From the NCBI GenBank assembly GCA_043804695.1, contig JAZDIV010000048.1:5941-69940 (forward strand): 64,000 bases of DNA. Direction: 5' to 3'. Under the pieces are notes generated by a model. That model saw nothing but the letters and a program-made list of their open reading frames with translations. It was not told the origin of the DNA and made no database searches. Shown here in pieces: positions 10,696 to 38,960 of the stretch. Position numbers and translations under genes: made by a program. This DNA is from PVC group bacterium (GTDB taxonomy: Bacteria > Auribacterota > Erginobacteria > Erginobacterales > Erginobacteraceae). Within the stretch, counting starts at the first letter, position 1. Every line of letters begins with the position of its first letter.

Positions 10696-10920
10696 AATAA
10701 ATTAGCGCCTCCGGCGCTAATTTAGAAGAATTGGAGTGAATTGTACCTTTTAAACGTGTAACAGACTGATAATTACCCAAGAATTAGTTTGAACGCAGCT
10801 GCTCAATAAACAACGGTAAGCCCTTAGTGTAATAAAACAAAATATTTTTTCCTGGTTGCTTTTTCGCCTGTTTCGGGAGTTCAATAATTGGATCTTTCCG
10901 ATTATTGAAATTCCGAAACA
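10696..10920. repeat. ~225 bp dispersed repeat (family 2), copy 1; begins with start-codon hairpin B and ends with A'-A palindrome
   Basis: About 95% identical to 27414-27644. Contains ttagcgcctccggcgctaa at the rsmD ATG and tgtttcgggagttcaataat...attattgaaattccgaaaca at the distal end. Confidence 0.85.
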
Positions 10921-11004
10921 TGAACTTAGCTTCGCAACTGTGGGAGGGCTTTCCAAGCCCGATAATCGGGGTTCATCGGGGCTCCATTCGTTCTGCGGCG
11001 GGCA

Positions 11005-11060
11005 CCGTTCGACGTTGGGCGTTGAACGTTGAACGTTGAACGTTCATTGTTCGATGTTCA
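11005..11060. repeat. Heptamer tandem (GAACGTT/TTSRACG) in recG 3' region
   Basis: cgttcgacgttgggcgttgaacgttgaacgttgaacgttcattgttcgatgttcat just downstream of the recG stop. Confidence 0.7.
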
Positions 11061-11067
11061 TCCCTCC

Positions 11068-13140
11068 TTACCCCACATCCCCCAGCTCGAAGTTGTCCCC
11101 GTAGCGGCGCCGGAGACGGCGGCGGACCTCCTCCAGTCCCGGATCTTTCAGCCGGGGGTCTTTTTCGAGGAGATGAAAAGCCTGCCGGCGGGCGAACTCC
11201 ATCAAACGCACATCCGCCACGATGTTCCCGATCCGGAGCTCGGGCAGCCCGGTCTGCTGGGTCCCGAAGAACTCCCCCGGTCCCCGGATCTCCAGATCCT
11301 CCCGGGCGATCAGGAAGCCGTCGTCTATATCCTTGATCGCCTGCAGGCGGCGGGCGGCATCCTCCGTCCGCGGATTGCCCTGGAGAATGCAAAAGGCGGG
11401 GTAGCGGCTTCTCCCCACCCGGCCCCGGAGCTGATGAAGCTGGGCCAGGCCGAAGCGTTCGGCGTTCTCGATCAGCATGACAGTCGCGTCCGGGATGTCG
11501 ATCCCGATCTCCACCACCACCGTTGAAACCAGGATCATCGTCTTCTGGCGGCGGAATTGCTCCATCGCTTTTTGCTTCTGATCGGACGGCAGTCGGCCGT
11601 GAATCAATCCCACCGGGATGCCGGGGAAAACCCGGCTCCGCAGGTGATCGAACATTGCGACAGCGGCTTTTAACTCCAGCCCCTCCGATTCCTCCACCAG
11701 CGGGTAGACGATAAAAGCCTGCCTGCCTTCTTCCACCTGCCGCCGGATGAAGGCGTAGGCCCGGTCGAGACGGTCGGGGCTGATCCAGTAGGTCTTCACC
11801 TTTGCCCGCCCGGGGGGCATCTCGTCCAGAACCGAAAAATCGAGATCGCCATAGACGGTCAGGGTCAGGGTCCGGGGGATCGGCGTCGCCGTCATCACCA
11901 GCACGTGCGGCTGAACTCCCTTCTGTCTTAAATCCGCCCGCTGCCGGACGCCAAATTTATGCTGCTCGTCGATCACGATCATCCCCAGGTGATGAAAGGA
12001 GACGTGCTTCTGGATCAGGGCGTGCGTCCCCGCCACCACCTGAATGGTCCCCGCCGCGATCTCTTCCAGAGCCCGTCTCCGCTGCGCCCCCTTCACCCCC
12101 GACGTCAGCAGGACCGTCCGCACCCCCAGGGGGGAGAGCTCCCGATCGATGTTGGCATGATGCTGAGCCGCCAGAATCTCCGTCGGGGCCATGATCGCCC
12201 CCTGGTAGCCGCTGTCCACCGTAGTCAAAAGAGCGCAGACGGCGACCACGGTCTTTCCGGACCCGACGTCTCCCTGGAGCAGGCGGTTCATCGCCCGCGT
12301 CCCCGTCATGTCGTCCTTGATCTCCCGGACCGCCCGCTCTTGCGCCCCGGTCAGCCGGAAAGGGAGCCGCGCGATGTAGCGGTCGCGCAGGGGCGTATCG
12401 GTCGAATGGGGCAGGCTACGCACCTGCCGGGCCCGTTTCTCCCGGCGGGATCCCAGCGCCAGCTGAAGGATGAAAAATTCGTCAAGGATCAGTCGCTTGC
12501 GGGCCTCTTCCAGCGCGGAGGGATCGGACGGGTAGTGGATGTCCCTGACGGCCCGGTGGAGAGGAACAACCCGCCACCGTTCCCGGAGATCGCCGGGGAG
12601 CAGTTCGGGACAGGCAGGAAGGCACTCATCGAGGGCCCGTTCGATAATCCCCCGCAGCATCTTCTGATTCAGCCCCTCGGTCAGGGGATAGACCGGAATA
12701 ATCCGGCCGGCCTGGCTGAGGCCGTCTCCTTCCGGCCCGAGCCGTTCGTATTCAGGGTTCACCATCTGGAGCGTGCGGTACCGATGCACCGGCCCGGTAA
12801 AGGCGGCCTCCTCTCCCTCCCGGAAGGTGTTTTCCAGGTAGGACTGATTGAACCAGATGCAGGATATTTTCCCGCTCCCGTCGGCAACCACCAGACGGAA
12901 CACCTTTTTCCCCGATCGGGTCCTGCTCAGTTCCCGGGCCAGAATGTTACCCCTGACGGTGGCAAAGTCGCCTTCCCGGAGGGCGGCGATGGGAGATATC
13001 CGGCGGCGGTCCTGGTAATTCCGGGGGAAAAAATACAGAAGGTCCTCCACCGTCTCGACGCCCAGCCGCTGGAGAAGCATCGCCCGGCGGGGGCCGACTC
13101 CCTTGAGATACTGGACGCTGTTATGTAAAGGTGACTCCAT
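11068..13140 (-). CDS. recG: ATP-dependent DNA helicase RecG
   Basis: 690 aa; wedge domain followed by DEQH helicase motifs (GDVGSGKT, DEQHKFG). Confidence 0.9.
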   Translation of the reverse strand: MESPLHNSVQYLKGVGPRRAMLLQRLGVETVEDLLYFFPRNYQDRRRISPIAALREGDFATVRGNILARELSRTRSGKKVFRLVVADGSGKISCIWFNQSYLENTFREGEEAAFTGPVHRYRTLQMVNPEYERLGPEGDGLSQAGRIIPVYPLTEGLNQKMLRGIIERALDECLPACPELLPGDLRERWRVVPLHRAVRDIHYPSDPSALEEARKRLILDEFFILQLALGSRREKRARQVRSLPHSTDTPLRDRYIARLPFRLTGAQERAVREIKDDMTGTRAMNRLLQGDVGSGKTVVAVCALLTTVDSGYQGAIMAPTEILAAQHHANIDRELSPLGVRTVLLTSGVKGAQRRRALEEIAAGTIQVVAGTHALIQKHVSFHHLGMIVIDEQHKFGVRQRADLRQKGVQPHVLVMTATPIPRTLTLTVYGDLDFSVLDEMPPGRAKVKTYWISPDRLDRAYAFIRRQVEEGRQAFIVYPLVEESEGLELKAAVAMFDHLRSRVFPGIPVGLIHGRLPSDQKQKAMEQFRRQKTMILVSTVVVEIGIDIPDATVMLIENAERFGLAQLHQLRGRVGRSRYPAFCILQGNPRTEDAARRLQAIKDIDDGFLIAREDLEIRGPGEFFGTQQTGLPELRIGNIVADVRLMEFARRQAFHLLEKDPRLKDPGLEEVRRRLRRRYGDNFELGDVG

Positions 13141-13270
13141 TAATAAATTAGCTCGCTGCGCTCGCTACTTTATAATGGACCCGATTGATTCAATCGGGGT
13201 CTGTTGGTTAATTAAGATATTTTCACCGAGGCAACAATATACAAAAGCCTTTCCAACATCAGCCAACATT
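13141..13270. repeat. ~130 bp dispersed repeat (family 3), copy 1
   Basis: taaattagctcgctgcgctcgctactttataatggacccgattgattcaatcggggtctgttggtta... also found at 43292 and 47397. Confidence 0.85.
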
Positions 13271-13458
13271 TGTCTTCCGGGATATGATTTTTCTGTTGGC
13301 TTACGGTAACCCACTCTGATTTTTTCGAAGAAAAAATCAGATTATTGAAATTCCGAAACAGCGAGATAACTTTATCCTTGTTTAACGTTCTTCCCTGTGC
13401 TAAACAAGGCTTCCTCAATCAACCGAAAAGGGATGACTTAATTAAGGATTATAACACC

Positions 13459-13686
13459 ATGTCACAAGTCTGCGCAATCTGCGGGAAGCAGCCTCATTCC
13501 GGGAACAAGATCAGCCGGCGTGGTCTGGCCAAAAAGAAAGGCGGGGTGGGAAAAAGAGTGACCGGCGTCTCCCGGAGAACATTCTTACCCAACCTTCAGA
13601 AAGTCAGGGCCGTGATCGATGGCGAGGTCGTTTCCATCCGGGCCTGCACGCAATGCATCCGTTCCGGCAAGGTTGTCAAGCCTTGA
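13459..13686 (+). CDS. rpmB: 50S ribosomal protein L28
   Basis: 75 aa MSQVCAICGKQPHSGNKISRRG... L28 family; the start is taken at an internal ATG of the longer track ORF. Confidence 0.85.
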   Translation: MSQVCAICGKQPHSGNKISRRGLAKKKGGVGKRVTGVSRRTFLPNLQKVRAVIDGEVVSIRACTQCIRSGKVVKP

Positions 13687-13791
13687 ATTTCCCCTTTCAG
13701 ATCAACTGATGTAAAAGGGGAAATGTAAACCGGGAATGCCGAAGGCATTCTGATCCAACAGGTCCCCTGTATAGCCGGGGACGAGACCGCA

Positions 13792-16527
13792 TCACTTCCC
13801 CCGCTTCCTCCGGTGCCAGAGGAGAAGCACCGGGCTGGCGATATAGATGGACGAGTATGTCCCCACCACCACCCCCACCATCAGCGCGAACGCGAAATCT
13901 TTGATCACCGCGCCCCCGAAAAGAAAGAGGAAAATCACCACGATCAGGGTGGTGAGCGAAGTCAGGAGCGTCCTGTTCAGCACCTGATTGATGCTGGTAT
14001 TGATGATCGTCTCATCCGATTCTCCCCGCATCTCTTTCATATTCTCCCGGATCCGGACAAAGACCACGATGGTGTCGTTCAGGGAATACCCCACGATGGT
14101 GAGGAGGGCGGCGATAATCGGGATACTGAACTCCCGGATCGGGAGCAGGAAGAATCCCGACAGGAAACCGACCGTGATGATAACATCGTGAACGAGGGCC
14201 AGAACCGCTCCCAGCGCGAACTTGAACTCATTAAACCTGAACCAGATATAGGCCCCGATCGCCAGGAAGGCCAGGATAATCGCCCCCAGCGCCTGGGTTC
14301 TCAGCCGGCTCCCCACTTTCGGCCCCACCATCTCGGTGCGCTGCTCGTAGGTTTCAGGATCGAGAAGGGAGGGGAGCGCTTTCTTGATCGCGTCATCGAT
14401 CTGCTGGGAAGAAGGCACGGAAGCCCGGATGATGACCCCCCTCCCTTCTCCGTACTGCTGGACCGAACTGCTTTCCAGGCCGATCCCGTTCAGGATCTCC
14501 CGGATTTTCACCGCCGGCACTTCCTCCGTGAACTGGCGCTGGATCAGAATCCCCCCGCTGAAATCGATGCCGAAGTTTTTCTCGCCGTTATAGATAAAGA
14601 CGAGGATACTCCCGATCATCAGAATTCCGGAAATCAGGAATGCCGTCCGGAGTTTGCTGATGAAAGCGAAGTTCGGGTTCTTAAACATCTGGAACATCTT
14701 GAGATCGGTAAACCGCGGGCTCAGGCAGAAGAGGTCGAAAACGACCCGGGTCACCACCAGGGCGGTGAACATGCTGGCGCAGATGCCGACCGACAGCGTC
14801 AAAGCGAACCCCTTGATCGGGCCCGACATGGGAAGGAAACTGAACCCCAGCGGGTTCAAAAGGACCAGGGCGGCGATCAGAGTCGTGAGGTTGGCGTCGA
14901 AAATCGTCAGAAACACCTTCTCATACCCGGCGGAGATGGCGCGCCGGATTCTCTTCCCGGCGGCCAGTTCCTCCCGGATCCTCTCAAAGATGAGAATGTT
15001 GGCGTCCACCGCCATTCCGATGGTCAGAATGATCCCGGCGATCCCGGGGAGGGTTAACGTCGCTTTGAAGCCTTTGAAGAGGAACGGCAGCAGGCAGAGG
15101 ACCCCGATGATGAAACCGACATTCAGGCAGAGAGCGAAATCGGCCACCAGACCCGCGACCAGGTAATAGATGGCCATGAAGACAATGACGATGATCAGTC
15201 CGGCCAGGGCGGCTTTGATTCCCTGCCGGATGGAGTCTTCTCCCAGCGACGGGCCGACCGAGCGCTGCTCCTTGATCATCAGCGGGGCCGGGTAGGCTCC
15301 GGCGGAAAGCTGGCTGGCCAGGAGCTTGGCGGAGTCAAGGTCAAAGTTGCCCTCGATGTATCCCTCCCCGCGCGGGATGTGGGTCCGGATCATCGGGGCC
15401 GAGAGAACATTGCCGTCAAGGATCATGGCCAGACGGCGGCCGGGAGGATTGTCATCCGCGTTGTACTGCTTGGTAATCCGCGAGAAGATCCGCGCTCCCT
15501 TGCGGTCGAACTTGAAATGAACGATCGGCTCGCCCGTTCCCCCTTTCGTCCCGAAATAAGCGGTGACCAGGCTTTCGCCGTTCAACTCGCTCTTGTCGAC
15601 CAGGAGCAGGCTCTCCTCGCCAACCGTGCCGTCGGGGTTCACCTTCCCGTAGGTCTTCAGCGTGAAGCCGGGCGGGGCTTCGCCGTCCGCGATCGCCTTT
15701 TCCAGGCGTTTCTCATCGTCGTCAACCAGCTTGAATTCTAAAAATGCCTGGCCCTGAATCAGCTCCAGGGTCTGCTCCGGGTCCCTGACCCCGGGCAGCT
15801 GGATCAGGAGCTCGTTCCGGCCCTGCTTCTGGATCTCCGGCTCGGAGACGCCGAACTTGTCGACCCGGTTCCGGAGTATTTCCAGGGATCCCAGGTTGGC
15901 GGCCTGAATCTCCCGGGCGAAGTTGTCGAAAACCTGCTCGTTGTTCTCAATCTCATCTGCCTGAAGATCGTATTTATCCTGATAATGCTGCTGATAATAC
16001 CTGGCCAGGCTGATACCCCGCTTTTTAACTGCTTCTTTCAAAACGTCCAGGGGTTCCCTGACCGAGCCGGCGGCCTGTTCTTCAACAGTATCCATCAGGG
16101 CGGTGAAATCTTCGTCGACGTTGTCGGCCCCTTTCCGGATCAGCGCCAGCTCATCCACCGACAGGATGACGTGCATCCCCCCGCGCAGATCAAGCCCCAG
16201 GTTCAGGTGTCCCTTGGTTTTCCGTTCGATCCGCTTGATGGCTTCCTTGTTATCCTCGCTTTCCGGGAAGTATCTGGTCAGGTCGATCCCGGAAGCCCGG
16301 ACTTCCTTTTTCAAAAGCTCGATCCCGGAGATGGGGATCTTGCGTTCTTCCATCCCGTACTCGCGGTCCATCGCCTGGAGCAGCCGCTGAAACGCCTCAT
16401 CCTGGTTAACCGCTTCCTTCTTCAGATACTCCCGAACGTTCAGCTCGGTCAGCGGGAAGGAAATCACGGCCAGGAGGGCGACAACCCCCAGGATAACCAG
16501 GATCTTCCATCTCAGCCCTTTTGACAT
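13792..16527 (-). CDS. secDF: protein translocase subunit SecDF (fused)
   Basis: 911 aa with two sets of 6 TM segments and a periplasmic domain; SecD and SecF signatures. Confidence 0.9.
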   Translation of the reverse strand: MSKGLRWKILVILGVVALLAVISFPLTELNVREYLKKEAVNQDEAFQRLLQAMDREYGMEERKIPISGIELLKKEVRASGIDLTRYFPESEDNKEAIKRIERKTKGHLNLGLDLRGGMHVILSVDELALIRKGADNVDEDFTALMDTVEEQAAGSVREPLDVLKEAVKKRGISLARYYQQHYQDKYDLQADEIENNEQVFDNFAREIQAANLGSLEILRNRVDKFGVSEPEIQKQGRNELLIQLPGVRDPEQTLELIQGQAFLEFKLVDDDEKRLEKAIADGEAPPGFTLKTYGKVNPDGTVGEESLLLVDKSELNGESLVTAYFGTKGGTGEPIVHFKFDRKGARIFSRITKQYNADDNPPGRRLAMILDGNVLSAPMIRTHIPRGEGYIEGNFDLDSAKLLASQLSAGAYPAPLMIKEQRSVGPSLGEDSIRQGIKAALAGLIIVIVFMAIYYLVAGLVADFALCLNVGFIIGVLCLLPFLFKGFKATLTLPGIAGIILTIGMAVDANILIFERIREELAAGKRIRRAISAGYEKVFLTIFDANLTTLIAALVLLNPLGFSFLPMSGPIKGFALTLSVGICASMFTALVVTRVVFDLFCLSPRFTDLKMFQMFKNPNFAFISKLRTAFLISGILMIGSILVFIYNGEKNFGIDFSGGILIQRQFTEEVPAVKIREILNGIGLESSSVQQYGEGRGVIIRASVPSSQQIDDAIKKALPSLLDPETYEQRTEMVGPKVGSRLRTQALGAIILAFLAIGAYIWFRFNEFKFALGAVLALVHDVIITVGFLSGFFLLPIREFSIPIIAALLTIVGYSLNDTIVVFVRIRENMKEMRGESDETIINTSINQVLNRTLLTSLTTLIVVIFLFLFGGAVIKDFAFALMVGVVVGTYSSIYIASPVLLLWHRRKRGK

Positions 16528-16533
16528 TATAAA

Positions 16534-16890
16534 TTAACTCCCTTCGGGTTTTCTTTCCACGGCGGAGACATTGCTGCGGTTGACCTCCAGCTTCACATTA
16601 TCGGCCACCTTGACGATGATCGTCTTTTCCTTCACGCTGCTGATGACCCCGTGAATGCCCCCCGTGGTCACCACCAGGTCTCCTTTCTGGAGTTCCGAGA
16701 CCAGCTTCTGATGCTCTTTCTGCCGCTTCTGCTGGGGACGGATCAGGAGGAAATAAAAAACGGCAAACATCAATATCAGGGGAATCAGCATCCCCCCCAG
16801 TCCGCCTTTCCCCCCTTCACCCTGCTGGCATCCCATGCCGCCGCCTTCGCCGCCTCCCGGCGCCATCGCGATTGGTATATACTGCATCAT
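16534..16890 (-). CDS. yajC: preprotein translocase subunit YajC
   Basis: 118 aa, single TM segment, then DLVVTTGGIHGVI motif. Confidence 0.85.
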   Translation of the reverse strand: MMQYIPIAMAPGGGEGGGMGCQQGEGGKGGLGGMLIPLILMFAVFYFLLIRPQQKRQKEHQKLVSELQKGDLVVTTGGIHGVISSVKEKTIIVKVADNVKLEVNRSNVSAVERKPEGS

Positions 16891-16993
16891 TGACCTCCTT
16901 TCAATATTTTTTCCTTGTTCTTGTATTCCTGTTTAACAGGTAAAGGCGTCGATAGTACTACAACCACCCGGTCAGCGCAACCCACAACCGTTC

Positions 16994-18169
<1,176 letters not shown>

Positions 18170-19779: not shown

Positions 19780-19845
19780 AACATTAAAAAATGGAGATCA
19801 GATAATCAGTAGGGAGTTGATCAGGAAATACATAAGAAGGTTATC

Positions 19846-20050
19846 GGATGATCAGGAAATCAGCAGGCAGATTATCGGGGTATTAAGGTTATCAGTCAGG
19901 GGGGCTCGCAATCTGATCACCTGATCTTCCGGTATCCCTTCCAAGGATATCAGATGATCAGGAAATCAGTAGGCAGATGATCAGGGTATAAGGTTATCAG
20001 GCAAGGGGGCCTCGCAATCTGATCACCTGATCCTCCGGTATCCCTCCCAC
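19846..20050. repeat. Tandem direct repeat (~108 bp period, about 2.5 copies), TGATCAG-rich
   Basis: gatgatcaggaaatcagcaggcagattatcggggtattaaggttatcagtcaggggggctcgcaatctgatcacctgatcttccggtatccc repeated at 19955-20045 with about 90% identity; a partial unit lies at 19800-19845. Confidence 0.8.
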
Positions 20051-20133
20051 TGATACCCTGATCACCTGATATCCCTTCCTTAGGTATCCCTCCCACTGAT
20101 ATCATGTTTTCCTGATACGCTATCTTCCCCTCT

Positions 20134-22068: not shown

Positions 22069-22147
22069 GTCATTGCGAGGAACGAAGTGACGAAGCAATC
22101 TTAGCCAATTTAAAAACAAGAGATTGCTTCGCTCCGCTCGCAATGAC
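22069..22147. repeat. Palindromic 'GTCATTGCGAG...CGAAGCAATCT' element, copy D
   Basis: gtcattgcgaggaacgaagtgacgaagcaatcttagcc...agattgcttcgctccgctcgcaatgac. Confidence 0.8.
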
Positions 22148-22213
22148 CATCACAAAAGATGTAATCTATTTAATGTTCTTCTTAGTAAGTCGATTATTTA
22201 AATTCCGAACACC

Positions 22214-22714
22214 TTATTTTTCCGCAGGAAAAATAGTATCGTGAAAGTACGTAATCCCCAGGGCCAGGGCGTCCGAAACATCGAATGGAGTGGGGAGCGC
22301 ATCCAGTTTCAGCAGGACCTGAACCATTTTCTGGACCTGTCTTTTATCAGCCGCGCCGTTCCCGACCACGGCTTTCTTTACCCGTCGGGCGGCATAGGTG
22401 GAGACCGGGATATCCCGCCGGGCCGCGGCCAGACTGCACACACCCCGTACCTCTCCCAGGGTTAATGTCGATCTGATGTTCTTATGATAAAAGACGTCTT
22501 CGAGAATAAATCTCCGGGGATGGTACCGCTCAATCAGTCCTTCTATTGCGGAGTGGATACGGGCCAATTTTTCCGCCGAAGTCTTCAGCCCCTTGCCGGT
22601 AATTGTACCGGCAGCCAGGAGAATTATATCTTCGCCCCGTTTCTCGAGAACGCCATAGCCGGTCACATTGATTCCAGGGTCAACGGCGATGATGCGAAGG
22701 GCATTAGGGGTCAC
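22214..22714 (-). CDS. ruvC: crossover junction endodeoxyribonuclease RuvC
   Basis: 166 aa, RIIAVDPGINVTGYG RNase H-like start. Confidence 0.9.
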   Translation of the reverse strand: MTPNALRIIAVDPGINVTGYGVLEKRGEDIILLAAGTITGKGLKTSAEKLARIHSAIEGLIERYHPRRFILEDVFYHKNIRSTLTLGEVRGVCSLAAARRDIPVSTYAARRVKKAVVGNGAADKRQVQKMVQVLLKLDALPTPFDVSDALALGITYFHDTIFPAEK

Positions 22715-23484: not shown

Positions 23485-23505
23485 TTGTTCCTCCGGAACA
23501 GTTTT

Positions 23506-23590
23506 AAGTGTAAAGTTTAAAGTGTAAGGTGTAAAGAATTCGCTTCTCTTGGCATTTAGACAGCAGCAGCAATCTTTACACTTTACACTT
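23506..23590. repeat. Tandem-unit hairpin, GTGTAAAG family (copy 1)
   Basis: gtgtaaagtttaaagtgtaaggtgtaaag...ctttacactttacac; related copies at 26965 and 35646. Confidence 0.75.
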
Positions 23591-23592
23591 AT

Positions 23593-23762
23593 CAGTCAGT
23601 CCATAATTATATGGACATGTCATTGCGAGGAGCGAAGCGACGAAGCAATCTCAACCCCATGCGCGGCAAGGGATTGCTTCGCGTAGTCTACCCCGATTTA
23701 TCGGGGCTCGCAATGACCGCAATCGTTGATGTAATTACTATAACGGTCGGATTAATAACACT
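23593..23762. repeat. Palindromic 'GTCATTGCGAG...CGAAGCAATCT' element, copy B (full length, inverted relative to copy A)
   Basis: agtcagtccataattatatggacatgtcattgcgagg...cgaagcaatct...ctcgcaatgaccgcaatcgttgatgtaattactataacggtcggattaataac is the reverse complement of 3250-3397. Confidence 0.85.
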
Positions 23763-26937: not shown

Positions 26938-26964
26938 ATAAGTTAGCGCCTCCGGCGCAACTTG

Positions 26965-27026
26965 GTGTAAAGTTTAAAGTGGAAAATGTAAGGGATCTTT
27001 ACACTTTACACCTGACACTTTACACA
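26965..27026. repeat. Tandem-unit hairpin, GTGTAAAG family (copy 2)
   Basis: gtgtaaagtttaaagtggaaaatgtaagggatctttacactttacacctgacactttacac. Confidence 0.75.
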
Positions 27027-27107
27027 GCTGTATTGAAATTCCGAAGCAGCAAGTTAGCGCCTCCGAAGCTGCTAATGATATTATTTTTGCACAGCAAAAA
27101 TAATAAC

Positions 27108-27398
27108 TCAGCCTTTCACCGCCACCTCGAACCCCTCCCGGACCGGGGCTTCGCGGTAGAGCGGGTAGGAGGCGCGCTGCTCGAGATAGAGATTTACCTC
27201 CTCGCTCGCCTCGGCGTCCTTCCTGCTCTCCCAGATGGTGACGGAAATCGCTTTCGATCGTTCCCGGTCGATGAGCAGGTAAAAGTTCCGGTACCCTTTC
27301 TGAACCTTGATCTCGGGGTTGATATACTCCTCGTACAGCTCCCGGAACTCGTCGATCTTATCCGGCTTGATCGAGATCGTAATAAGCTGGGCGTACAT
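27108..27398 (-). CDS. antibiotic biosynthesis monooxygenase (ABM)/Dabb-family small protein
   Basis: 96 aa; ferredoxin-like ABM pattern (ITISIKPDKIDEFRELYEEYI...TIWESRKDAEA). Confidence 0.55.
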   Translation of the reverse strand: MYAQLITISIKPDKIDEFRELYEEYINPEIKVQKGYRNFYLLIDRERSKAISVTIWESRKDAEASEEVNLYLEQRASYPLYREAPVREGFEVAVKG

Positions 27399-27413: not shown

Positions 27414-27644
27414 TATAAATTAGCGCCTCCGGCGCTAATTTAGAAGAATTTGGAGTGAATTGTACCTTTTAAACGTGTAACAGACTGATGATTACCCAAG
27501 AATTAGTTTGAATGTAACTGCTCAATAAACAACGGTAAGCCTTGAGTGTAATAAAATAAAACAAAATATTTTTTCCTGGTTGCTTTTTCGCCTGTTTCGG
27601 GAGTTCAATAATCGGATCTTTCCGATTATTGAAATTCCGAAACA
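27414..27644. repeat. ~225 bp dispersed repeat (family 2), copy 2
   Basis: Near-identical to 10696-10920; carries hairpin B at the ABM gene's ATG and an A'-A palindrome distally. Confidence 0.85.
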
Positions 27645-27833
27645 GGCACGTTAGCTCACGCATTAGATACTACAAAGCATACTCTCACGTCAATAAAACA
27701 AACGTACGGGCGGCACGTGGTGGAGAAAAAAGCAGGACTTCCGTTACATAAAAAAACCAGATAGACGAATCTATCCGGGAAAAAAGATTACTACAGCCAC
27801 AGTTTAAGAGAGAGAGACTGTGTAACAGTTTAA

Positions 27834-28091
27834 TCATGTTCTGATTATCTGCTCGTGCTCCTCCACTTTTTCGCCTATCGTATCTAACTTTTGATCTATT
27901 TTGCCTATTTGCTCTTGCAAATTTTTTGCCACCAAATTAAGTTTTAGCTCAGTTTCCCGATTAAGCTCCCGAGCCTCTTCCCTCACTTCACCGATGTCCC
28001 TCCTTAAAACTTGATGGCCCTCCAAGATCACATCAAATTTCCGGTCCATATGTTCCATGAGCACTTCAAATCTTTCTTTTTCATCCGGCAC
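27834..28091 (-). CDS. hypothetical small coiled-coil protein in AT-rich island
   Basis: 85 aa charged helical ORF inside a ~550 bp low-GC (~40%) segment downstream of the 5S rRNA; no recognisable family. Confidence 0.3.
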   Translation of the reverse strand: MPDEKERFEVLMEHMDRKFDVILEGHQVLRRDIGEVREEARELNRETELKLNLVAKNLQEQIGKIDQKLDTIGEKVEEHEQIIRT

Positions 28092-31818: not shown

Positions 31819-31923
31819 TTAAAATTTTTTCCGAAGAAAAAATTTTAAGGACACATTACCATACCAGACATTTAATCAAAAGAGCAAATATCCAACAATA
31901 CTTCGCATCAGTCCACTCAGACA

Positions 31924-31997
<74 letters not shown>

Positions 31998-32235: not shown

Positions 32236-33836
<1,601 letters not shown>

Positions 33837-33882
33837 GATTAAGAATTGATCCGGCTTCCGTACTGGAGCCCGTCTTACCATT

Positions 33883-33898
33883 CAATTGTCAAAGAACA
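33883..33898 (-). promoter_or_regulatory. boxA-like antitermination element in the 16S leader
   Basis: Minus strand TGTTCTTTGACAATTG, identical to the copy at 31692-31707. The adjacent leader pairs with the 16S trailer (ggtaagacgggctccagtacggaagccgg pairs with ccggcttccgtgctggacccgtcttgcc at about 32190-32218). Confidence 0.6.
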
Positions 33899-33994
33899 AA
33901 AAAAATGCATCCGCAGATGCATCGATGAATACCTGCGAAGAAATGTGGTGCTGCTTACATTGTAAAGGAACACCTCAATTTCATCAGCTTGCCA

Positions 33995-34050
33995 TTACCA
34001 TATACCACGAGGCGTCGTCTGTCAAGAGGAAAATGAAATTATTTTTTCGG
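33995..34050 (-). promoter_or_regulatory. candidate rrn P promoter with UP element
   Basis: Minus strand aaaaaataatttcattttcctcTTGACAgacgacgcctcgtggTATATGgtaatgg; consensus -35 with an AT-rich UP-like tract upstream. Confidence 0.45.
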
Positions 34051-34054
34051 GATA

Positions 34055-35278
34055 TCACCCAGCCAGCGCGATCCGGCAAAAATGCCGTTTGCCCAGCTTG
34101 AGAACGTCATTAGCTTTGACCGCGATCAGGGCCTCGTGTTCAACTATTTTTTCTCCGTTTAAACTGACCGCTCCCTCCTTGATCTTCCGGCGGGCCTCCG
34201 CGTTGCTGGAGACCAGCGATGCCTTCCGGAGCAGGGTTACGATGTTGATCATGCCTTCGGCCAGATCATCCGGCCCCAGCCGGAGAGACGGCATCTCCCG
34301 GGGCGCTTTTTTCTTCTGGTGGACCGTCTCAAAAGTCCGCTGCGCCTCGCGGGCGTCCTGACTCGAAGTAAACCGTTCGGCGATCTCGAAGGCCAGGTTC
34401 TTCTTCCAGATCAGGGGATTGGTCCCCGCGGCGCAGGCCCGCTTCGCCTCTCCGATTTCCTCGGCGCTCCGATCGGACAGCAGCTCGAAATAGCGCCACA
34501 TCATGTTGTCGGAGATGGACATTATCTTGCCGTAGATATCCCGGGCCGGCTCGCTGATCCCCACGTAGTTCCCCAGGCTCTTGCTCATTTTCTGCACCCC
34601 ATCGGTCCCTTCCAGCAGGGGGAGGGTCATGACCGTCTGCGGGGGCTGCCGGTATTCCCGTTGAATTTCCCGGGCCAGGAGCAGGTTAAAGGTTTGATCG
34701 GTCCCCCCCAGCTCCAGGTCGGACCGGACGATAACCGAGTCATACCCCTGCATCAGGGGATAGAGGAACTCCAGCACGCTGATCGGGCGCCCCGCCCGGT
34801 AGCGTTCCGAGAAATCATCGCGTTCCAGCATGCGGGCCACCGTATACTTGGAGGTGAGCTCAATGATATCGGAAAACTTCAGCGGCGAGAGCCAGGAGCT
34901 GTTGTAAACCACCTCGGTCTTTTCCCGGTCGAGAATCTTGAACACCTGCTCCTGATAGGTGCGGGCGTTCTCCATGATTTCGTCCCGGGAGAGGCGGCGG
35001 CGGGTCCTGGTTCTTCCGGAAGGATCGCCGACCAGCGCGGTGAAGTCACCGATGATGAATACGACCAGGTGGCCCAGATTCTGGAACTCGCGCAGCTTGC
35101 GGAGGGGAACGGTATGCCCGAGATGGATGTCGGGAGCCGAGGGGTCGGCGCCGTACTTGACCCGGAGCGGCCGCCCGGAGGAGAGGGAACCTCGGATTTT
35201 GACCGCCAGATCGTCTTCCGGAATGATCTCGACGGCGCCCCGCCGGATGATTTTCAGTTGCTGTTCTACCGGATCCAT
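34055..35278 (-). CDS. tyrS: tyrosine--tRNA ligase
   Basis: 407 aa; HIGH-type motif (HLGH), KMSKS, C-terminal S4 domain. Confidence 0.92.
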   Translation of the reverse strand: MDPVEQQLKIIRRGAVEIIPEDDLAVKIRGSLSSGRPLRVKYGADPSAPDIHLGHTVPLRKLREFQNLGHLVVFIIGDFTALVGDPSGRTRTRRRLSRDEIMENARTYQEQVFKILDREKTEVVYNSSWLSPLKFSDIIELTSKYTVARMLERDDFSERYRAGRPISVLEFLYPLMQGYDSVIVRSDLELGGTDQTFNLLLAREIQREYRQPPQTVMTLPLLEGTDGVQKMSKSLGNYVGISEPARDIYGKIMSISDNMMWRYFELLSDRSAEEIGEAKRACAAGTNPLIWKKNLAFEIAERFTSSQDAREAQRTFETVHQKKKAPREMPSLRLGPDDLAEGMINIVTLLRKASLVSSNAEARRKIKEGAVSLNGEKIVEHEALIAVKANDVLKLGKRHFCRIALAG

Positions 35279-35289
35279 CTATAAATTAG

Positions 35290-35465
35290 CGCCTTCGGCG
35301 CAACTTGGTTACGGCCAGGGTAACGATGCCCGTTTCGGCAAAGGTAACGGTAACGGCCACTCCGCCTGGCGCACGTAACCGTAACCGGCAGACGAAACCC
35401 CGATAAATCGGGGCAGGCTGGGCCTCGTAACCGTAACCGTAGCCGTTATTGAAATTCCAAAGCAG
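35290..35465. repeat. ~170 bp dispersed repeat (family 4, GTAACGG-rich), copy 1
   Basis: ggttacggccagggtaacgatgcccgtttcggcaaaggtaacggtaacggcc...gtaaccgtaaccgtagccgttattgaaattcc; about 85% identical to 38812-38960. Confidence 0.85.
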
Positions 35466-35468
35466 GAA

Positions 35469-35607
35469 CTTAGCCCTCACTTCGCTCGGGCGACTAAATA
35501 AAACTACGAATTACGCGAATTACACGAATTTTCTTTAAAATATCCCTGCACTGTCGGTTCAATGCTTGCACATTCTTATTTTTCCGGAGGAAAAATAAGA
35601 TTATTGA
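35469..35607. repeat. ~135 bp dispersed repeat (family 5), copy 1
   Basis: ctacgaattacgcgaattacacgaatt...gttcaatgcttgcacattcttatttttccggaggaaaaataag; second copy at 44153-44300. Confidence 0.8.
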
Positions 35608-35645
35608 AATTCCGAAACAGCAAGTTAGCGCCTCCGGCGCAACTT

Positions 35646-35700
35646 GGTGTAAAGTTTAAAGTGTAAGGAATCTTTACACTTTACACCTGACACTTTACAC
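35646..35700. repeat. Tandem-unit hairpin, GTGTAAAG family (copy 3)
   Basis: gtgtaaagtttaaagtgtaaggaatctttacactttacacctgacactttacac. Confidence 0.75.
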
Positions 35701-35917
35701 AGCTTTATTGAACTCCCGAAACAGGGAATGAGCGCCTTCGGGGATGACTTCTATTCCGGCAAAGGTTGGGGTGATTACTTCCAAAATGGATATCGGATTA
35801 TCAGCATATCAGTGGGAAGGACATCAGGAACTTAGGAGAACAGGTAAGGGCTCGGCCTCGCCTGATAATCTGATATCCTGAGGCCCTTCCCACAGATATG
35901 CTGATTCCCTGGTATCC

Positions 35918-37756
35918 TTATTTCTCTTCTCCCCCTTCATCCGCGGGGGCGGTGTCTTCCCCTGACATTTCAGAAGCCGGGGTGGCCGGCCCGGCTATCG
36001 ATTCGGCCAGTTTTTCCAGGCCGTCCTTGAGGCGGGTGTCGACATCTTTCATCCGGGGCCGCACCGTCTCCGCACCGGCGGGCGGTTCCTGCTCCAGCCC
36101 TTTTCCCTGGAGATAGTTTTTAATGCTCAGGGCGATCCGCCGCTCGTCCTTATCGATATTGATCACCTGCGCCTTGACCGCGGCGCCTTCCGCAATGACG
36201 TCTTTAATGTTCTCAAACGGCTTGTCGCTGACCTGGGAGATATGCACCAGCCCCTCGATGCCGGAGTCAAGCTCCACAAACACGCCGAAGCCGGTGACCT
36301 TGGTCACCTTCCCTTCGACAACATCGCCCGGCATATACCTGCTGGTGACCTCCTCCCAGGGATCGATCCCCATCTGCTTGGTCCCCAGGGAGATTTTTTT
36401 ATTTTCAGCGTCAATCGAAAGAACAACCGCCTCCACCTTGTCGCCCCGCTTGAACAGCTGAGAAGGATGGGCTATCTTCTTCGTCCAGGACATGTCGGAG
36501 ACGTGAATCAACCCGTCGATGCCCTCCTCCAGCTCAAGAAACGCCCCGTAGGAGGTCATGTTCCGGATCTTCCCCTTAACGACACTGCCCACCGGGAACC
36601 TGTCGGCAACCTGCGTCCAGGGGTTGACCTCGAGCTGCTTGATCCCGAGCGAGATTTTTTCTTCTTCCGGCTGAGTCTTCAGGACCACGATCTCGATGAC
36701 ATCGCCGATCGCGAGAATATCGGTCGGGTGGTTGATCTTGCGGGTCCAGGAGAGCTCGGAGATGTGGACCAGTCCCTCCACTCCGTCTTCCAGCTCGACA
36801 AAAGCCCCGTAGGGCATGATGTTCACCACCCGTCCCTGGACTTTCTTGCCGGGAGGATACTTTTCGCCCACCGACTCCCAGGGGTTGGGGGTCTTCTGCT
36901 TGAGTCCCAATGAGACCCGTTCCCGTTCCCGGTCATACTTCAGAATCTTGACTTCGACCTCATCCCCCACCGCCAGCAGCTCGGAGGGATGGCTGATCCG
37001 GCCCCAGGACATGTCCGTGATATGGAGGAGGCCGTCCAATCCTCCCAGATCTACGAAAACCCCGAAGTCGGTTATGTTCTTGACCACGCCTTTCCTGATG
37101 TCGCCTTCCGCGATCTCGGAGAGGAGCTTGGTCCGGGCACGGGTGCGCTCTTCTTCCAGAAGTTCCCGGCGGGACAAAACGATATTCCGCCGGCGTTCAT
37201 TGATTTTGATGATTTTGAACGCGAATTCCCGGCCCATCAGGCTGTCTTTATCTTTAATGTAGTGGATGTCGATCTGGGAGGCGGGCAGAAAAGCGTCCAG
37301 GCCGATATCGACCATCATCCCGCCTTTCACCCGCCGGGAGATAACCCCGGAAATGCTGTCCCCTTCCTGATACTGGGAGACGACCCGCTCCCAGTTTTTC
37401 AGCTTGTCCGCCTTCTGCTTGGAGATGCAGACCATCCCGTCCCTGTCTTCCAGACGCTCGAGGAAAACCTCCACCGTGTCCCCGGTCTGGAGGCTGGTCT
37501 CGGTCTCAAATTCACTCAGGGGGATCAGGCCCTCGGACTTGTAGCCGATATCGATAACCACGTATTCAGAACGGATCCCGTAAATCCGGCCGGTTACCAT
37601 CTTCCCTTCTTCGAGATGCTGCATGGTCGCCTCGACCATCCCCGCCAGCTCTTCCCGGGACATCGTCTCCCCGGCGCCGCTTTCTTGAATCGGTTGGGTT
37701 GTTTCGTTCGTCAGTTCCGTCATCTCACGTATTCCTTCCTGTTGCGGATATCCCAT
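35918..37756 (-). CDS. rpsA: 30S ribosomal protein S1
   Basis: 612 aa with six S1 domains and an acidic C-terminal tail; the start may be the MTELT ATG 11 codons in. Confidence 0.9.
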   Translation of the reverse strand: MGYPQQEGIREMTELTNETTQPIQESGAGETMSREELAGMVEATMQHLEEGKMVTGRIYGIRSEYVVIDIGYKSEGLIPLSEFETETSLQTGDTVEVFLERLEDRDGMVCISKQKADKLKNWERVVSQYQEGDSISGVISRRVKGGMMVDIGLDAFLPASQIDIHYIKDKDSLMGREFAFKIIKINERRRNIVLSRRELLEEERTRARTKLLSEIAEGDIRKGVVKNITDFGVFVDLGGLDGLLHITDMSWGRISHPSELLAVGDEVEVKILKYDRERERVSLGLKQKTPNPWESVGEKYPPGKKVQGRVVNIMPYGAFVELEDGVEGLVHISELSWTRKINHPTDILAIGDVIEIVVLKTQPEEEKISLGIKQLEVNPWTQVADRFPVGSVVKGKIRNMTSYGAFLELEEGIDGLIHVSDMSWTKKIAHPSQLFKRGDKVEAVVLSIDAENKKISLGTKQMGIDPWEEVTSRYMPGDVVEGKVTKVTGFGVFVELDSGIEGLVHISQVSDKPFENIKDVIAEGAAVKAQVINIDKDERRIALSIKNYLQGKGLEQEPPAGAETVRPRMKDVDTRLKDGLEKLAESIAGPATPASEMSGEDTAPADEGGEEK

Positions 37757-37960
37757 CCGGGGACAACCGCCGCGGTTGCGCCGGCCGCTAGGACGACCGG
37801 CGGGGTTGTGTTATTTTTGCCGCCCCGGCAAAATCGGGGCGGTAAAAACAACGGTGTATTTTTGAGCCAAAGGGGGCGGAGGATAGCACCGGAGCGTTTC
37901 TGAGTCAATATCTAACTGGATTCGGTGTCCGACAATTGTCCGCCTATGATAAATGACGAA

Positions 37961-38108
37961 ACTCGAATGTCGAATGACGAAAGAATGACAAATTTAAAAT
38001 GACCAATGACGAACCCTCCCCGCCTGGGTGATGGGTTTATTTGTCATTAGACATTCTTTCGGCATTCGTTATTCGGATTTCGTCATTCGTCACTCATTCC
38101 TCATTGCG
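37961..38108. repeat. Tandem-unit hairpin, GAATGACGAA family (copy 1), between cmk and rpsA
   Basis: Left arm aaatgacgaa / gaatgtcgaa / tgacgaa units; right arm cattctttcgg / cattcgtt / atttcgtcattcgtc. Confidence 0.8.
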
Positions 38109-38118
38109 ATCTCGATTA

Positions 38119-38811
38119 TTACTTAATGTACTCCAGTATCTTCCGCAAGTTGACCTCCACATCATCCGTGTCCCCGGTATCGATCACGATCCCGTCTTCG
38201 GCCAGGCGGAGAGCCCCGACCGGCCGGGTCTTGTCCGCGTGATCCCTTTTGATCAAATCTTTTTCGACTTCCTCCCGGGTGGTTTTGAGACCATTCTGGA
38301 GGAATTCCCGGTGGCGCCGGCCGGTCCTTATTTCAAGGGGAGCATCCACGAAAAACTTATAGTCGGCATCCGGGAAGACGACGGTGCCGGTGTCCCTCCC
38401 TTCCGCCACCACGCTCCTCGAGGCGGCGATCGCCCGCTGCTGGGTAACCAGCTCCTTCCTGACCTCCGGGACATCCGCCAGAAATTTTACCGTGTTGGTC
38501 ACTTCCGGGGTACGGATCACCCTGGTCACCTCCTGGCCGTCGACAAAAACCCGGGTCCCCTCCTCCCCCTTTCTCAAGCGGATCTCGGTGTTCTTCGCCA
38601 GTTCGATCAGGCCGTCTTTATCCTCCATCTCCACCGGCGACCGGAGCGCCTTCCAGGTGATCGCCCGGTAGATGGCGCCGGTGTCGAGATAAATCACCCC
38701 CAGCCGTTCGGCCAGGCGCCGGGCGATCGTGCTCTTCCCCGAGCCGCAGGTCCCATCCATGGTTATTGTAATCCTTCTTTCTTGTGCGCTCATGGATAAT
38801 ATTCTTATCAT
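38119..38811 (-). CDS. cmk: cytidylate kinase
   Basis: 230 aa; P-loop DGTCGSGKST and cmk NMP-binding region. The start may be the second in-frame ATG. Confidence 0.9.
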   Translation of the reverse strand: MIRILSMSAQERRITITMDGTCGSGKSTIARRLAERLGVIYLDTGAIYRAITWKALRSPVEMEDKDGLIELAKNTEIRLRKGEEGTRVFVDGQEVTRVIRTPEVTNTVKFLADVPEVRKELVTQQRAIAASRSVVAEGRDTGTVVFPDADYKFFVDAPLEIRTGRRHREFLQNGLKTTREEVEKDLIKRDHADKTRPVGALRLAEDGIVIDTGDTDDVEVNLRKILEYIK

Positions 38812-38960
38812 TCAGTGCCTTCGGCGCAACTCGGTTACGGCAAGGGTAACGATGCCCGTTTCGGGAAAGGTAACGGTAACGGCCGCCCCGCTTGGCGCAC
38901 GTAACCTTAACCGGCAGACGAAACAGGCCTCGTAACCGTAGCCGTAGCCGTAGCCGTTAT
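38812..38960. repeat. ~150 bp dispersed repeat (family 4), copy 2
   Basis: Begins with degenerate hairpin B (gtgccttcggcgcaac) at the cmk ATG, then ggttacggcaagggtaacgatgcccgtttcgggaaaggtaacggtaacgg...gttattgaaattccg. Confidence 0.85.

Follow-up and report, generated by a model that had tools for sequence, protein, structure and literature searches.

We found that motif A is a real repeat in the window (the whole stretch of DNA that was analysed, 64 kb), and that it may be the terminal module, recognised by its sequence, of short, strand-specific, non-autonomous and non-coding intergenic cassettes that resemble REPIN, NIME and IS200/IS605 derivatives. We tentatively consider it likelier to be the end of a selfish element than a conserved gene switch, and the cassette family, which fills gaps between genes in this uncultured bacterium, is perhaps confined to one set of Candidatus Auribacterota-like (PVC) bacteria. 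A pattern search of the window returned nine matches with three or fewer mismatches, against 0.02 expected by chance, and none of 100 shuffled sequences attained that number. Loosening the threshold to five mismatches added the copies at 22193 and 38956, for a total of 11, all of them intergenic (Table 1). The preliminary description had counted at least 10 copies in one orientation. The polarity of the repeat is established, with nine copies on the plus strand, but the other two are minus-strand inverted partners, each spaced 12 nt from a plus-strand copy, as in the inverted pair A'-N12-A already described. Several positions given earlier were shifted (13338 to 13341, 22195 to 22193, 26998 to 27029, 35443 to 35445, 35593 to 35600, 35706 to 35704 and 38941 to 38956), and the GC content, put at 62%, is about 57% for the window overall and about 49–62% per 2 kb. 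The core GAAATTC, described as self-complementary, is not strictly so, because its reverse complement is GAATTTC; GGAAUUUC can pair with itself on the sense RNA only, through G-U pairs.

The boundaries of the units that contain motif A are also established. On the coding (minus) strand, A' (TGTTTCGGAATTTCAATAAT) follows a B-type hairpin whose tail reads GCTAAnTTnC, and it marks the start of a unit A'-X-B. In this unit X is variable, and B, a GC hairpin with the tail TAAnTTAT, runs up to either the following unit or a start codon. The earlier observation that motif B follows A holds in a sharper form, as the unit continues ...AAACA-G-nAAnTTAGC, the 5' half of a B-type hairpin. The interior X is a tandem-heptamer hairpin, an AT-rich palindrome (C) with a promoter-like body, or an inverted second A with a 170-nt body. 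Units of the last kind (type 1, 224–231 nt) carry 52-nt palindromes formed by a copy of A and its inverted partner. The two are 97% identical, and their identity ends at the exact outer edges of A and B; we found neither target-site duplications nor terminal inverted repeats at these edges, and the flanks are unrelated.

Table 1. Copies of motif A and associated modules in the window
Feature	Position	Strand	Context
Motif A, variant A2 (ATTATTGAACTCCCGAAACA), 2 mismatches	10869-10888	-	Inner arm of palindrome 1; 12 nt from partner
Motif A, exact	10901-10920	+	Outer arm of palindrome 1; sense-strand 5' end of 224-nt unit upstream of rsmD
Motif A, exact	13341-13360	+	Divergent recG/rpmB spacer; preceded by palindrome C (13316-13340)
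Motif A, degenerate, 4 mismatches	22193-22212	+	1 nt past ruvC stop codon, upstream of ruvA
Motif A, 3 mismatches	27029-27048	+	First module of efp unit
Motif A, variant A2, 2 mismatches	27593-27612	-	Inner arm of palindrome 2; 12 nt from partner
Motif A, exact	27625-27644	+	Outer arm of palindrome 2; 5' end of 231-nt unit upstream of ABM-domain ORF
Motif A, 3 mismatches	35445-35464	+	Opens third tandem unit, rpsA-tyrS spacer
Motif A, exact	35600-35619	+	Opens second tandem unit, rpsA-tyrS spacer
Motif A, A2-type variant, 3 mismatches	35704-35723	+	Opens first tandem unit
Motif A, truncated/degenerate, 5 mismatches	38956-38975	+	Opens unit upstream of cmk; first 6 sense-strand bases replaced
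Unit type 1, copy 1	10697-10920	-	Palindrome A'-N12-A2, body of ~170 nt, B hairpin 10699-10723 at rsmD start codon
Unit type 1, copy 2	27414-27644	-	Upstream of ABM-domain ORF 27108-27398; B hairpin 27417-27441
Array of three A'-X-B units	35283-35723	-	Occupies most of rpsA-tyrS spacer
B hairpin	35622-35645	-	AAGTTGCGCC-GGA-GGCGCTAACTT on sense strand; tail GCTAACTTGC directly before A'
AT-rich palindrome C	35575-35599		CTTATTTTTCC-N3-GGAAAAATAAG; adjoins motif A

The rpsA–tyrS spacer parses as [A'-hp-B][A'-C-body-B][A'-hp-B]ATG. Its first unit (35622–35723) runs from A' through a GTGTAAA-heptamer hairpin to B, its second (35466–35619) from A' through palindrome C and a conserved 110-nt body to a B-type hairpin, and its third (35283–35464) terminates in a B hairpin at the tyrS start codon. 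The efp unit (26938–27048) likewise consists of A', a heptamer hairpin and B, and terminates at the efp start codon. Hairpins of the kind found at 35622–35645 also occur at the start codons of rsmD, efp, the ABM ORF, tyrS and cmk, and the B loop beside start codons is GGAGG or GAAGG. Identity is 91% between the tyrS-proximal and cmk upstream units and 85% between the efp and 35.7-kb units. Unit edges are partly blurred: the cmk copy begins 6 nt inside A', and the efp and 35.7-kb units have half of the preceding B in common. Palindrome C forms a family of 11 copies in the window; as described earlier it comes before A in two cases (13316–13340 and 35575–35599), and it follows A at 22213–22236, where a C-type palindrome overlaps the end of ruvC. 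An rRNA-operon terminator lies upstream of the copy at 27625–27644.

Turnover of motif A between relatives is established as well. An exact consensus is common to different species, and the motif is also present in one related MAG and sporadically in metagenomes; doublets are its dominant form in MAG MFD02416. No match was found in viral contigs or in plasmid and phage collections, and the motif was not found in the literature. A same-genus relative (L036; 16S 97.5%, coding DNA ~79% identical, syntenic over 20 kb) keeps only the copy upstream of tyrS, and its efp gene has B-ATG without A'. The order B-A'-hairpin-B-ATG is nevertheless present in this relative and in locus L033. Locus L040 has two degenerate copies in other spacers, and L037, L039, L041 and L042 have none. 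A conserved regulon site is not supported, as the orthologous spacers of close relatives mostly lack the motif. The variety of the genes downstream of A, which include those for acetate kinase, an SNase-domain protein, an EamA-family transporter and a GNAT acetyltransferase as well as rsmD, efp, tyrS and cmk, also argues against a regulon. By contrast, a 110-nt interior module is 92–95% identical between species with only 79% identity in their genes, which suggests host-function selection or recent transfer rather than neutral junk and points against a selfish cassette.

Motif A appears to be read by its sequence and not by its structure, because it is nearly invariant across species, is unstructured when folded alone (folding energy 0) and shows no covariation or compensatory changes among its copies, whereas the neighbouring B hairpin does show compensatory changes. 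As DNA, the doublets fold into perfect 26-bp hairpins (−29 kcal/mol); their arms are invariant, and the mismatches in A2 are uncompensated.

Among the options offered by the preliminary description, a mobile-element end fits, because A marks the precise edge of discrete, duplicated units and its positions turn over between same-genus genomes. A polar architectural sequence with replication-linked polarity does not: at loci with genes on both strands, the orientation of the motif tracks the adjacent downstream gene, and one divergent spacer (L025) holds two opposite copies, each directed towards its own gene. The earlier proposal is thus partly supported. We infer that the cassettes are mobile, with a mechanism and a mobilising protein to match. 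The cassettes sit with a single orientation immediately 3' of the tail of a B-type hairpin already in place, at the junction of GCTAAnTTnC and TGTTTCGG, which recurs in ~35 copies, none of them picked by an exact-match search. They therefore stack in tandem from an upstream hairpin to the following start codon, with each restoring a B hairpin before the gene. Spread would proceed by strand-specific copying without target duplication. Candidate routes are an enzyme of the HUH/Y1 type acting on single strands, like that of REP/REPIN and IS200/IS605 derivatives, or recombination between hairpins of the kind proposed for Neisseria NIMEs. Motif A would be the part read by the mobilising protein, the 52-nt palindromes a REPIN-like doublet form and the degenerate single copies fossils. 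Consistent with this, the consensus is exact across species and A' has decayed within otherwise well-kept paralogous units, the pattern expected of active masters and fossils. We found no transposase, RAYT or other candidate enzyme, and the only tyrosine recombinase in the window is the housekeeping XerD; a tblastn search with Y1 query sequences over 361 kb of DNA, short of whole genomes, was negative, which is a weak test. No empty and filled site pair with clean junctions and near-identical flanks was obtained.

The gene-linked orientation of A could equally be explained by function. It is possible, though unlikely, that A serves the host as a DNA site, located upstream of promoters, for a putative abundant lineage-specific DNA-binding protein, with an upstream activating, insulating or nucleoid-organising role directed at the downstream gene; in this model, single copies would be bound by a monomer and the 52-bp palindrome by a dimer. 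A' faces the downstream gene in ~19 of 23 scorable single copies, divergent spacers included, and A'-C lies ~30–75 nt upstream of the −35 box in both credible cases of a sigma-70-type promoter, those of recG (TTGGCT-N18-TATATT, ~75 nt from the copy at 13341–13360) and of a type-2 module (TTGACT-N18-TGTAAT, 44.2 kb). The invariance of A without covariation and the variable 6–7-bp centre between invariant arms of the doublet would also suit such a site. However, predicted paralogous promoter modules at 43.3, 44.2 and 47.4 kb lack A', its distance to the start codon ranges from 90 to 430 nt, and complete units directed towards the 3' end of a convergent gene exist (L002 7647/7847 and L031). The decay of A' in conserved units, its absence from the same-genus relative's orthologous spacers and the unrelated functions of the downstream genes weigh against this reading too.

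We give a similarly low probability to A' being a putative signal for RNA processing, stability or protein binding, acting as single-stranded AU-rich sequence in intercistronic or leader RNA. In such a model A' would lie exposed between stable hairpins, with B upstream and C, a heptamer hairpin or its own partner downstream, and would be sequestered in doublets. The strict sense orientation relative to genes agrees with this, as do the predicted unpaired state of A' between strongly folding hairpins (z-scores −5.2 and −5.8), the compensatory pairs that indicate structural selection on B, the GGAGG or GAAGG loops beside start codons and the G-U self-pairing confined to sense RNA. Yet the recG and type-2 promoters sit downstream of A', which would place it outside those leaders, and 10 of 25 single copies have a divergent gene as their upstream neighbour, so A' is not the end signal of an upstream transcript. 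A' itself does not covary, and no Rfam family was matched, even at an E-value of 5.

It is improbable that the palindromic form is the core site of a site-specific recombinase, with single copies as half-sites left by recombination. The geometry AATAATCGG-N6/7-CCGATTATT, with its variable centre and invariant arms, and unit edges free of target duplication are compatible with such a site, but a hairpin loop predicts a variable centre equally, arms of 20–24 bp exceed usual core sites, the sole recombinase seen is a standard XerD, and single copies, whose outer flank is conserved, far exceed the recombination scars expected. Coding, promoter and known-RNA signals are absent from motif A, and its identity as a promoter or as the start of a small leader peptide, the most improbable reading, is largely refuted: although A contains TTGAAA and A' contains AATAAT, which are similar to −35 and −10 hexamers, and a GGAGG-loop B hairpin precedes A' at the same distance as it precedes real start codons, a promoter scan found no site at any copy, partner hexamers at 16–18 nt are absent on both strands, and the frame that reads LFRNFNN on the reverse complement, as noted earlier, lacks a canonical start codon, stops at arbitrary places and accumulates substitutions without codon-phase bias (30/22/25 at positions 1/2/3), which makes the small ORFs spurious, as the preliminary description held. 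The palindromic form of the motif also speaks against coding.

Several known families come close to the cassettes described here. REP/REPIN elements, hairpin-forming REP doublets reportedly mobilised by RAYT Y1 transposases, share with motif A a short, extragenic, lineage-specific and strand-specific arrangement, the presence of singlets and inverted doublets with long hairpins, a consensus kept in related species while individual copies decay, and the absence of target duplication. Unlike them, A itself is non-palindromic, its palindromic partner lies in a distinct module (B), a RAYT gene was not found, and the copies keep to the 5' side of genes and delimit units whose interiors vary. Enterobacterial BIMEs and Neisseria NIMEs, the latter RS units with flanking dRS3 repeats, also build spacers as mosaics of a hairpin repeat, other conserved motifs and variable units, in tandem arrays with the hairpin as recurring boundary and modules shuffled between loci. 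They have no sequence similarity to the units described here, whose array is polar towards the next start codon, whose boundary hairpin has a Shine-Dalgarno-like loop and whose modules include tandem-heptamer hairpins. PATEs derived from IS200/IS605 match, by the geometry of IS608, in asymmetric ends, single orientation, lack of target duplication, hairpins ~20 nt in from the left end and ~8–10 nt in from the right, an insertion point 3' of a conserved short sequence and possible tandem insertion. However, the left and right hairpins of IS200/IS605 elements are alike, whereas here the hairpin after A' (left end) is highly variable and dissimilar to that of the right end; there is no TnpA or TnpB nearby, and orientation tracks genes rather than, demonstrably, replication. 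MITEs (Correia, ERIC and RUP), which can bring promoters and change mRNA, are likewise small, non-coding, intergenic and hairpin-forming, but the present units lack terminal inverted repeats and target-site duplications, and only the 52-nt doublet is palindromic. Finally, intergenic TAACTGA heptamer repeats occur in Beggiatoaceae, cyanobacteria and Bacteroidetes (PMC4679880). The spacers of the window are similarly rich in tandem heptamers, although these vary from spacer to spacer and build inverted hairpins, and A is a single 20–30-nt motif rather than a tandem heptamer.

Motif A, the AT-rich 20-mer ATTATTGAAATTCCGAAACA, is a real, strongly non-random, lineage-specific polar repeat. We found 9 matches at three or fewer mismatches, compared with 0.02 expected from dinucleotide shuffles of the window, which rules out a chance origin and bears out the enrichment over shuffled sequence that the preliminary description had anticipated. 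Raising the mismatch cut-off from 3 to 5 added the copies at 22193 and 38956. All 11 copies are intergenic, with neighbouring copies 104 to 8852 nt apart, and the two inverted copies pair with + copies to form two palindromes of 52 nt each. The window is housekeeping chromosomal DNA (rsmD, recG, rpmB (+), secDF, ruvABC, EF-G, efp, an ABM-domain open reading frame (ORF), tyrS, rpsA, cmk and a complete rRNA operon), and its minus strand holds nearly every gene from 5 to 56 kb. The coding strand carries the reverse complement of A, termed A' (TGTTTCGGAATTTCAATAAT), for 9 of 9 single or outer copies. Several coordinates in the preliminary description were wrong by 2–31 nt, and its GC content of 62% is corrected to a window average of about 57%.

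Coordinates of motif A and associated repeat features; positions refer to the window unless a foreign locus (L-number) is named
Feature	Coordinates	Strand	Remark
Motif A	10901, 13341, 22193, 27029, 27625, 35445, 35600, 35704, 38956	+	pattern search
Motif A, inverted partners	10869, 27593	-	each 12 nt from a + copy
Three tandem units, rpsA-tyrS spacer	35723-35622, 35619-35466, 35464-35283, then ATG	-	clean spacer parse
B hairpin	10699-10723, 26940-26963, 27417-27441, 35283-35306, 38815-38827, 47399-47422; L036 1181-1203, 9975-9997
110-nt module	35466-35575; L004 560-692; L002 5135-5260, 7648-7840; L003 6586-6732; L005 7367-7550
Shared module of ~130 nt	13197-13271 + 13140-13187; 43292-43418; 47397-47524		upstream of start codons
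Heptamer hairpins	26975-27025, 35650-35700, 23500-23540, 11010-11060, 7900-7940, 35300-35440, 38820-38955, 37980-38110, 40000-40140, 4660-4740, 47600-47680, 41140-41340, 19790-20130
Mini-palindrome, 16 nt	about 10950, 13185, 23860, 35395, 47440; L002 7700-7730; L005 7440-7470
Palindrome, ~40 nt	3310-3350, 4928-4968, 22091-22131, 23641-23681		family unrelated to motif A

At foreign loci whose genes lie on both strands, a crude ORF call showed A' pointing to the next gene downstream in 18 of the 23 single copies that could be scored, or about 19–20 of 23 after checking for miscalls. One divergent spacer (L025) carries two opposite copies, each directed toward its own gene. The exceptions were complete units directed toward the 3' end of a convergent gene (L031 and L002 7647/7847) and a unit inverted relative to its neighbouring genes (L006). 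The upstream neighbour was divergent in 10 of 25 cases, which rules out A as a 3'-end signal or element of the upstream gene. An intrinsic terminator was rejected on the same divergence and because a terminator scan called 0 copies of A. The rRNA operon has its own canonical terminator (27757-27778) upstream of the second palindrome.

The conserved sequence extends beyond the 20-mer. Directly 5' of A' we observed GCTAAnTTnC, which is the 3' half and tail of a hairpin of type B, a GC-rich module (AAnTTGCGCC-GGA/GAA-GGCGCTAAnTT). This junction is kept in about 35 copies, none picked by exact-match searches, and together with A' it makes a conserved element about 30 nt long. A' (20 nt) is always followed by a hairpin of variable kind (the AT-rich palindrome C, a tandem-heptamer hairpin or an inverted A), and at the other end a B-type hairpin with a tail of 8–10 nt closes every unit, adjoined by the next A' or by a start codon. 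The units thus have the form A'-X-B, in which X is variable, and their left edge reads TAAnTTnC/TGTTTCGG. The efp spacer has the order C, B, A'-hairpin-B, ATG, which recurs in the foreign loci L033 and L036. Two units headed by the A palindromes (10697-10920 and 27414-27644) are 97% identical, with identity that runs from precisely the outer edge of B to precisely the outer end of A. The sequences on either side are unrelated and share no direct repeat, so that no target-site duplication was found, and the unit ends (A' and the B hairpin tail) are unrelated sequences rather than terminal inverted repeats. The tyrS-proximal and cmk-proximal units are 91% identical, and the cmk copy lacks the first 6 nt of A'.

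We searched genomes of 185,579 species (one genome per species) and found the exact 20-mer repeated in just one, the soil MAG MFD02416.bin.2.262, at 12 loci; four single matches in AT-rich Bacteroidota lacked the conserved flanks and are due to chance. Seven distinct loci of this MAG carry A doublets, as do 10869-10920 and 27593-27644. In JGI metagenomes the 20-mer occurred on about 14 contigs of 45–55% GC with the same extended junction. A phage, plasmid or viral origin was rejected, as A had no match among 72,556 plasmids, 50,697 phages and viral contigs. The searchable literature contained no paper with the A sequence and none describing repeats in this lineage. The window's EF-P matches an NCBI protein of a 'PVC group bacterium' MAG without any difference, and relatives at 72–78% identity include Candidatus Euphemobacter frigidus, which has been placed in Candidatus Auribacterota (SURF-CP-2) (PMC9324843). 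From rpsA to secDF, over 20 kb, locus L036 is syntenic with the window (16S 97.5%, genes about 79% identical) and has one A copy, in front of tyrS; at its efp start the B hairpin is present and A' is missing. In the more distant syntenic locus L040, two degenerate copies lie on the sense strand of other spacers, and four further relatives have 0 copies within 14–20 kb. These comparisons indicate that positions of A are not conserved and that copy number differs strongly between close relatives. Where the window has a palindrome-headed unit between the rRNA operon and the ABM ORF, L036 has a PhdYeFM/PIN toxin–antitoxin pair (8594-9288).

We tentatively read A as the sequence-recognised end of strand-specific, non-autonomous cassettes, a reading that is possible and somewhat short of probable. 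Such cassettes would insert 3' of a B-type hairpin tail, and an inserted cassette would restore a B hairpin in front of the gene. A repeat element is favoured by the sharp-edged units, by their one-orientation tandem stacking at a conserved junction with no target duplication, by exact consensus copies across species together with decayed A in well-kept units, and by strong turnover between same-genus genomes in front of unrelated downstream genes. From this we infer mobility, a mobilising enzyme and a single-strand mechanism. Against mobility, the hairpin after A' lacks the conservation expected of IS608-like elements and some unit boundaries are blurred. The window has no transposase near A and no RAYT (Y1 HUH) gene, the repeat-flanked partner of REPs and REPINs, and tblastn of 361 kb of loci with IS200 TnpA and E. 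coli RAYT sequences, a weak test, gave no match. A fuller version is doubtful as a whole: A'-X-B would be a mobile 'gene-start cassette' of a strand-specific kind not described before, which causes no target duplication, inserts between leader hairpin and start codon, re-creates at its 3' end a hairpin and ribosome-binding module, and shuffles promoters, leaders and hairpins among unrelated Candidatus Auribacterota genes, with A as the recognition sequence of the mobilising enzyme.

At a distance of 2–20 nt, B hairpins precede the start codons of rsmD, efp, the ABM ORF, tyrS, cmk and one other gene. Their loop and 3' stem always carry GGAGG or GAAGG on the coding strand, and the genes behind them mostly lack another Shine–Dalgarno sequence. 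B is also conserved in L036 at the orthologous tyrS and efp starts, and compensatory changes are seen in it. B may be a hairpin-presented ribosome-binding module. The exceptional L006 unit (3195-3430, identical in L011 and L013) is palindrome-headed and inverted, yet its B loop is flipped, so GGAGG still lies on the coding strand of the adjacent gene, suggesting that loop orientation is selected separately from the other parts of the unit. A non-coding interior module of 110 nt (AATGTGCAAGCATTGAACCGACAGTGCAGGGATATTTTAAAGAAAATTCGTGTAATTCGCGTAATTCGTAG...GAGGGCTAAGTTC) shows 92–95% identity when the window is compared with several MAG MFD02416 loci, as against about 79% for coding genes of the same-genus L036. 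This points to selection on at least the 110-nt module, or to recent exchange, and is at odds with a purely selfish picture. The module tolerates mini-hairpin insertions at two fixed points and is perhaps a small RNA present in multiple copies, or else a promoter–leader under strong constraint.

As an alternative, which we consider unlikely, A might be bound upstream of genes, as a directional DNA site, by an abundant protein specific to the lineage. Credible promoters were read at two places, recG (TTGGCT-N18-TATATT) and 44.2 kb (TTGACT-N18-TGTAAT), with A'-C upstream of the -35 box at both; paralogues of both promoter modules occur without A'. A conserved operator of a translation-gene regulon was rejected, as the motif precedes unrelated genes in relatives and is missing from orthologous spacers. 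In a comparison by eye, none of the IHF, Fur, LexA, parS, dif, boxA and attC consensuses matched A. A module of about 130 nt precedes the start codons of three unrelated genes (recG and those starting at 43291 and 47396) and contains a good sigma-70-type promoter (TTGGCT-N17/18-TATAAT; TATATT in the recG copy), a leader hairpin and a B-variant hairpin adjoining the start codon. It looks like a propagated promoter–leader cassette.

An RNA-level signal, single-stranded between hairpins, is similarly improbable. A alone is unstructured (free energy 0 on either strand), being palindromic only as a doublet or in the separate B, and the doublet folds into a perfect hairpin of 26 bp (-29 kcal/mol for DNA). 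In the palindrome-headed unit, compared in nine copies from two genomes, the arms hardly change and the 6–7-nt centre is variable. Mismatches of the recurrent variant A2 (GAACTCCCG) in the palindrome arm are uncompensated, and compensatory changes are present in the B hairpin of these units. Structured RNA in the 170-nt body of the units at 10697-10920 and 27414-27644 was rejected, as folding the alignment gave the palindrome and B alone and supported no helix inside the body. An Rfam scan of the window returned rRNA and tRNA alone at gathering thresholds; the comparison proposed earlier found no family at A or its units, even at an E-value of 5. In a fold of the sense RNA, the A' core GGAAUUUC (35456-35463, 35604-35611 and all A' copies) can pair with a second A' by way of two G–U pairs, and self-pairing on the opposite strand would require A–C mismatches.

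It is very improbable that A is a recombinase core site; the window's integrase-family gene (49124-50161) is XerD. Promoter and leader-peptide readings are essentially excluded: a consensus scan of all spacers with A found no sigma-70-like site overlapping it on either strand, no pair of -35 and -10 hexamers 16–18 nt apart was called and the credible promoters lie downstream of A', sigma-54, ECF, sigma-28 and sigma-32 spacings on both strands did not fit its conserved positions by eye, and A' is not coding, as its copies have no ATG, GTG or TTG at a fixed place and substitutions per codon phase in the LFRNFNN frame (30/22/25) show no third-position excess. The spurious 'conserved' small ORFs (LFRNFNN) are, as first proposed, accounted for by the motif, together with the cassettes. 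A CRISPR repeat was rejected for want of regular spacing, and a tandem-repeat scan found no array.

Other repeats were noted as well. Many spacers contain long hairpins in which both arms are tandem heptamers in inverted orientation, with a heptamer that differs by spacer (GTGTAAA, CGTTGAA, GGTTACG, GACGAAT, CACGAAG, CCAAGGCA and others). They recall known intergenic heptamer repeats (PMC4679880) and differ in being inverted and sequence-diverse. A 16-nt mini-palindrome, CCCCGAT(A/T)(A/T)ATCGGGG, often followed by TAGAC, is scattered in spacers, with MAG copies inserted inside other repeat modules; it makes up a second family of repeats, REP-like and lying within the first. Four copies of a roughly 40-nt palindrome (CGAAGCAATCT-N17-19-AGATTGCTTCG) occur, and a larger inverted repeat (GTCATTGCGAG...CTCGCAATGAC) surrounds each. 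An 85-aa ORF with no family match (27834-28091, minus strand) separates the 5S rRNA gene from the rRNA-operon terminator. A 657-aa ORF (60389-62362, minus strand) matches FG-GAP weakly and contains DNA repeats 156 nt (and 120 nt) long; it is a gene for a repeat protein and the source of the window's direct-repeat families D1, D4 and D5.

The motif and its cassettes account for the long, AT-rich, repeat-laden spacers and are probably behind assembly breaks in these MAGs, and the exact 20-mer is a lineage-specific marker in metagenomes. If A does mark the end of mobile cassettes, an uncultured candidate phylum would have its own rich system of intergenic mosaic repeats, unusual in being polar to gene starts, in lacking inverted ends and target duplications, and in ending in a hairpin with a Shine–Dalgarno-like loop at the start codon. 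It would show regulatory DNA being copied from gene to gene in nature and offer a way to find a new mobilising enzyme.

We compared the units with known systems, among them IS200/IS605 (IS608), REPIN and BIME/NIME elements. Unlike DDE-derived MITEs, they have neither terminal inverted repeats nor target-site duplications. They resemble IS200/IS605 elements in their asymmetric ends, subterminal hairpins, lack of target duplication and location just 3' of a conserved short sequence (GCTAAnTTnC); by contrast, the left and right hairpins of those elements are alike and both bound by TnpA, whereas A' is followed by hairpins of several kinds that are not similar to B. Like REPs and REPINs, A is extragenic and multi-copy and occurs as singlets and as inverted, hairpin-forming doublets, although a REP unit is itself a short imperfect palindrome and A alone is unfolded. 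The likeness to BIMEs and NIMEs, whose spacers are also an ordered mix of a hairpin repeat, other conserved motifs and variable units, is one of kind only, the E. coli and Neisseria motifs being unrelated in sequence. Motif A falls in a known kind, that of intergenic mosaic repeats and REPIN-like elements.
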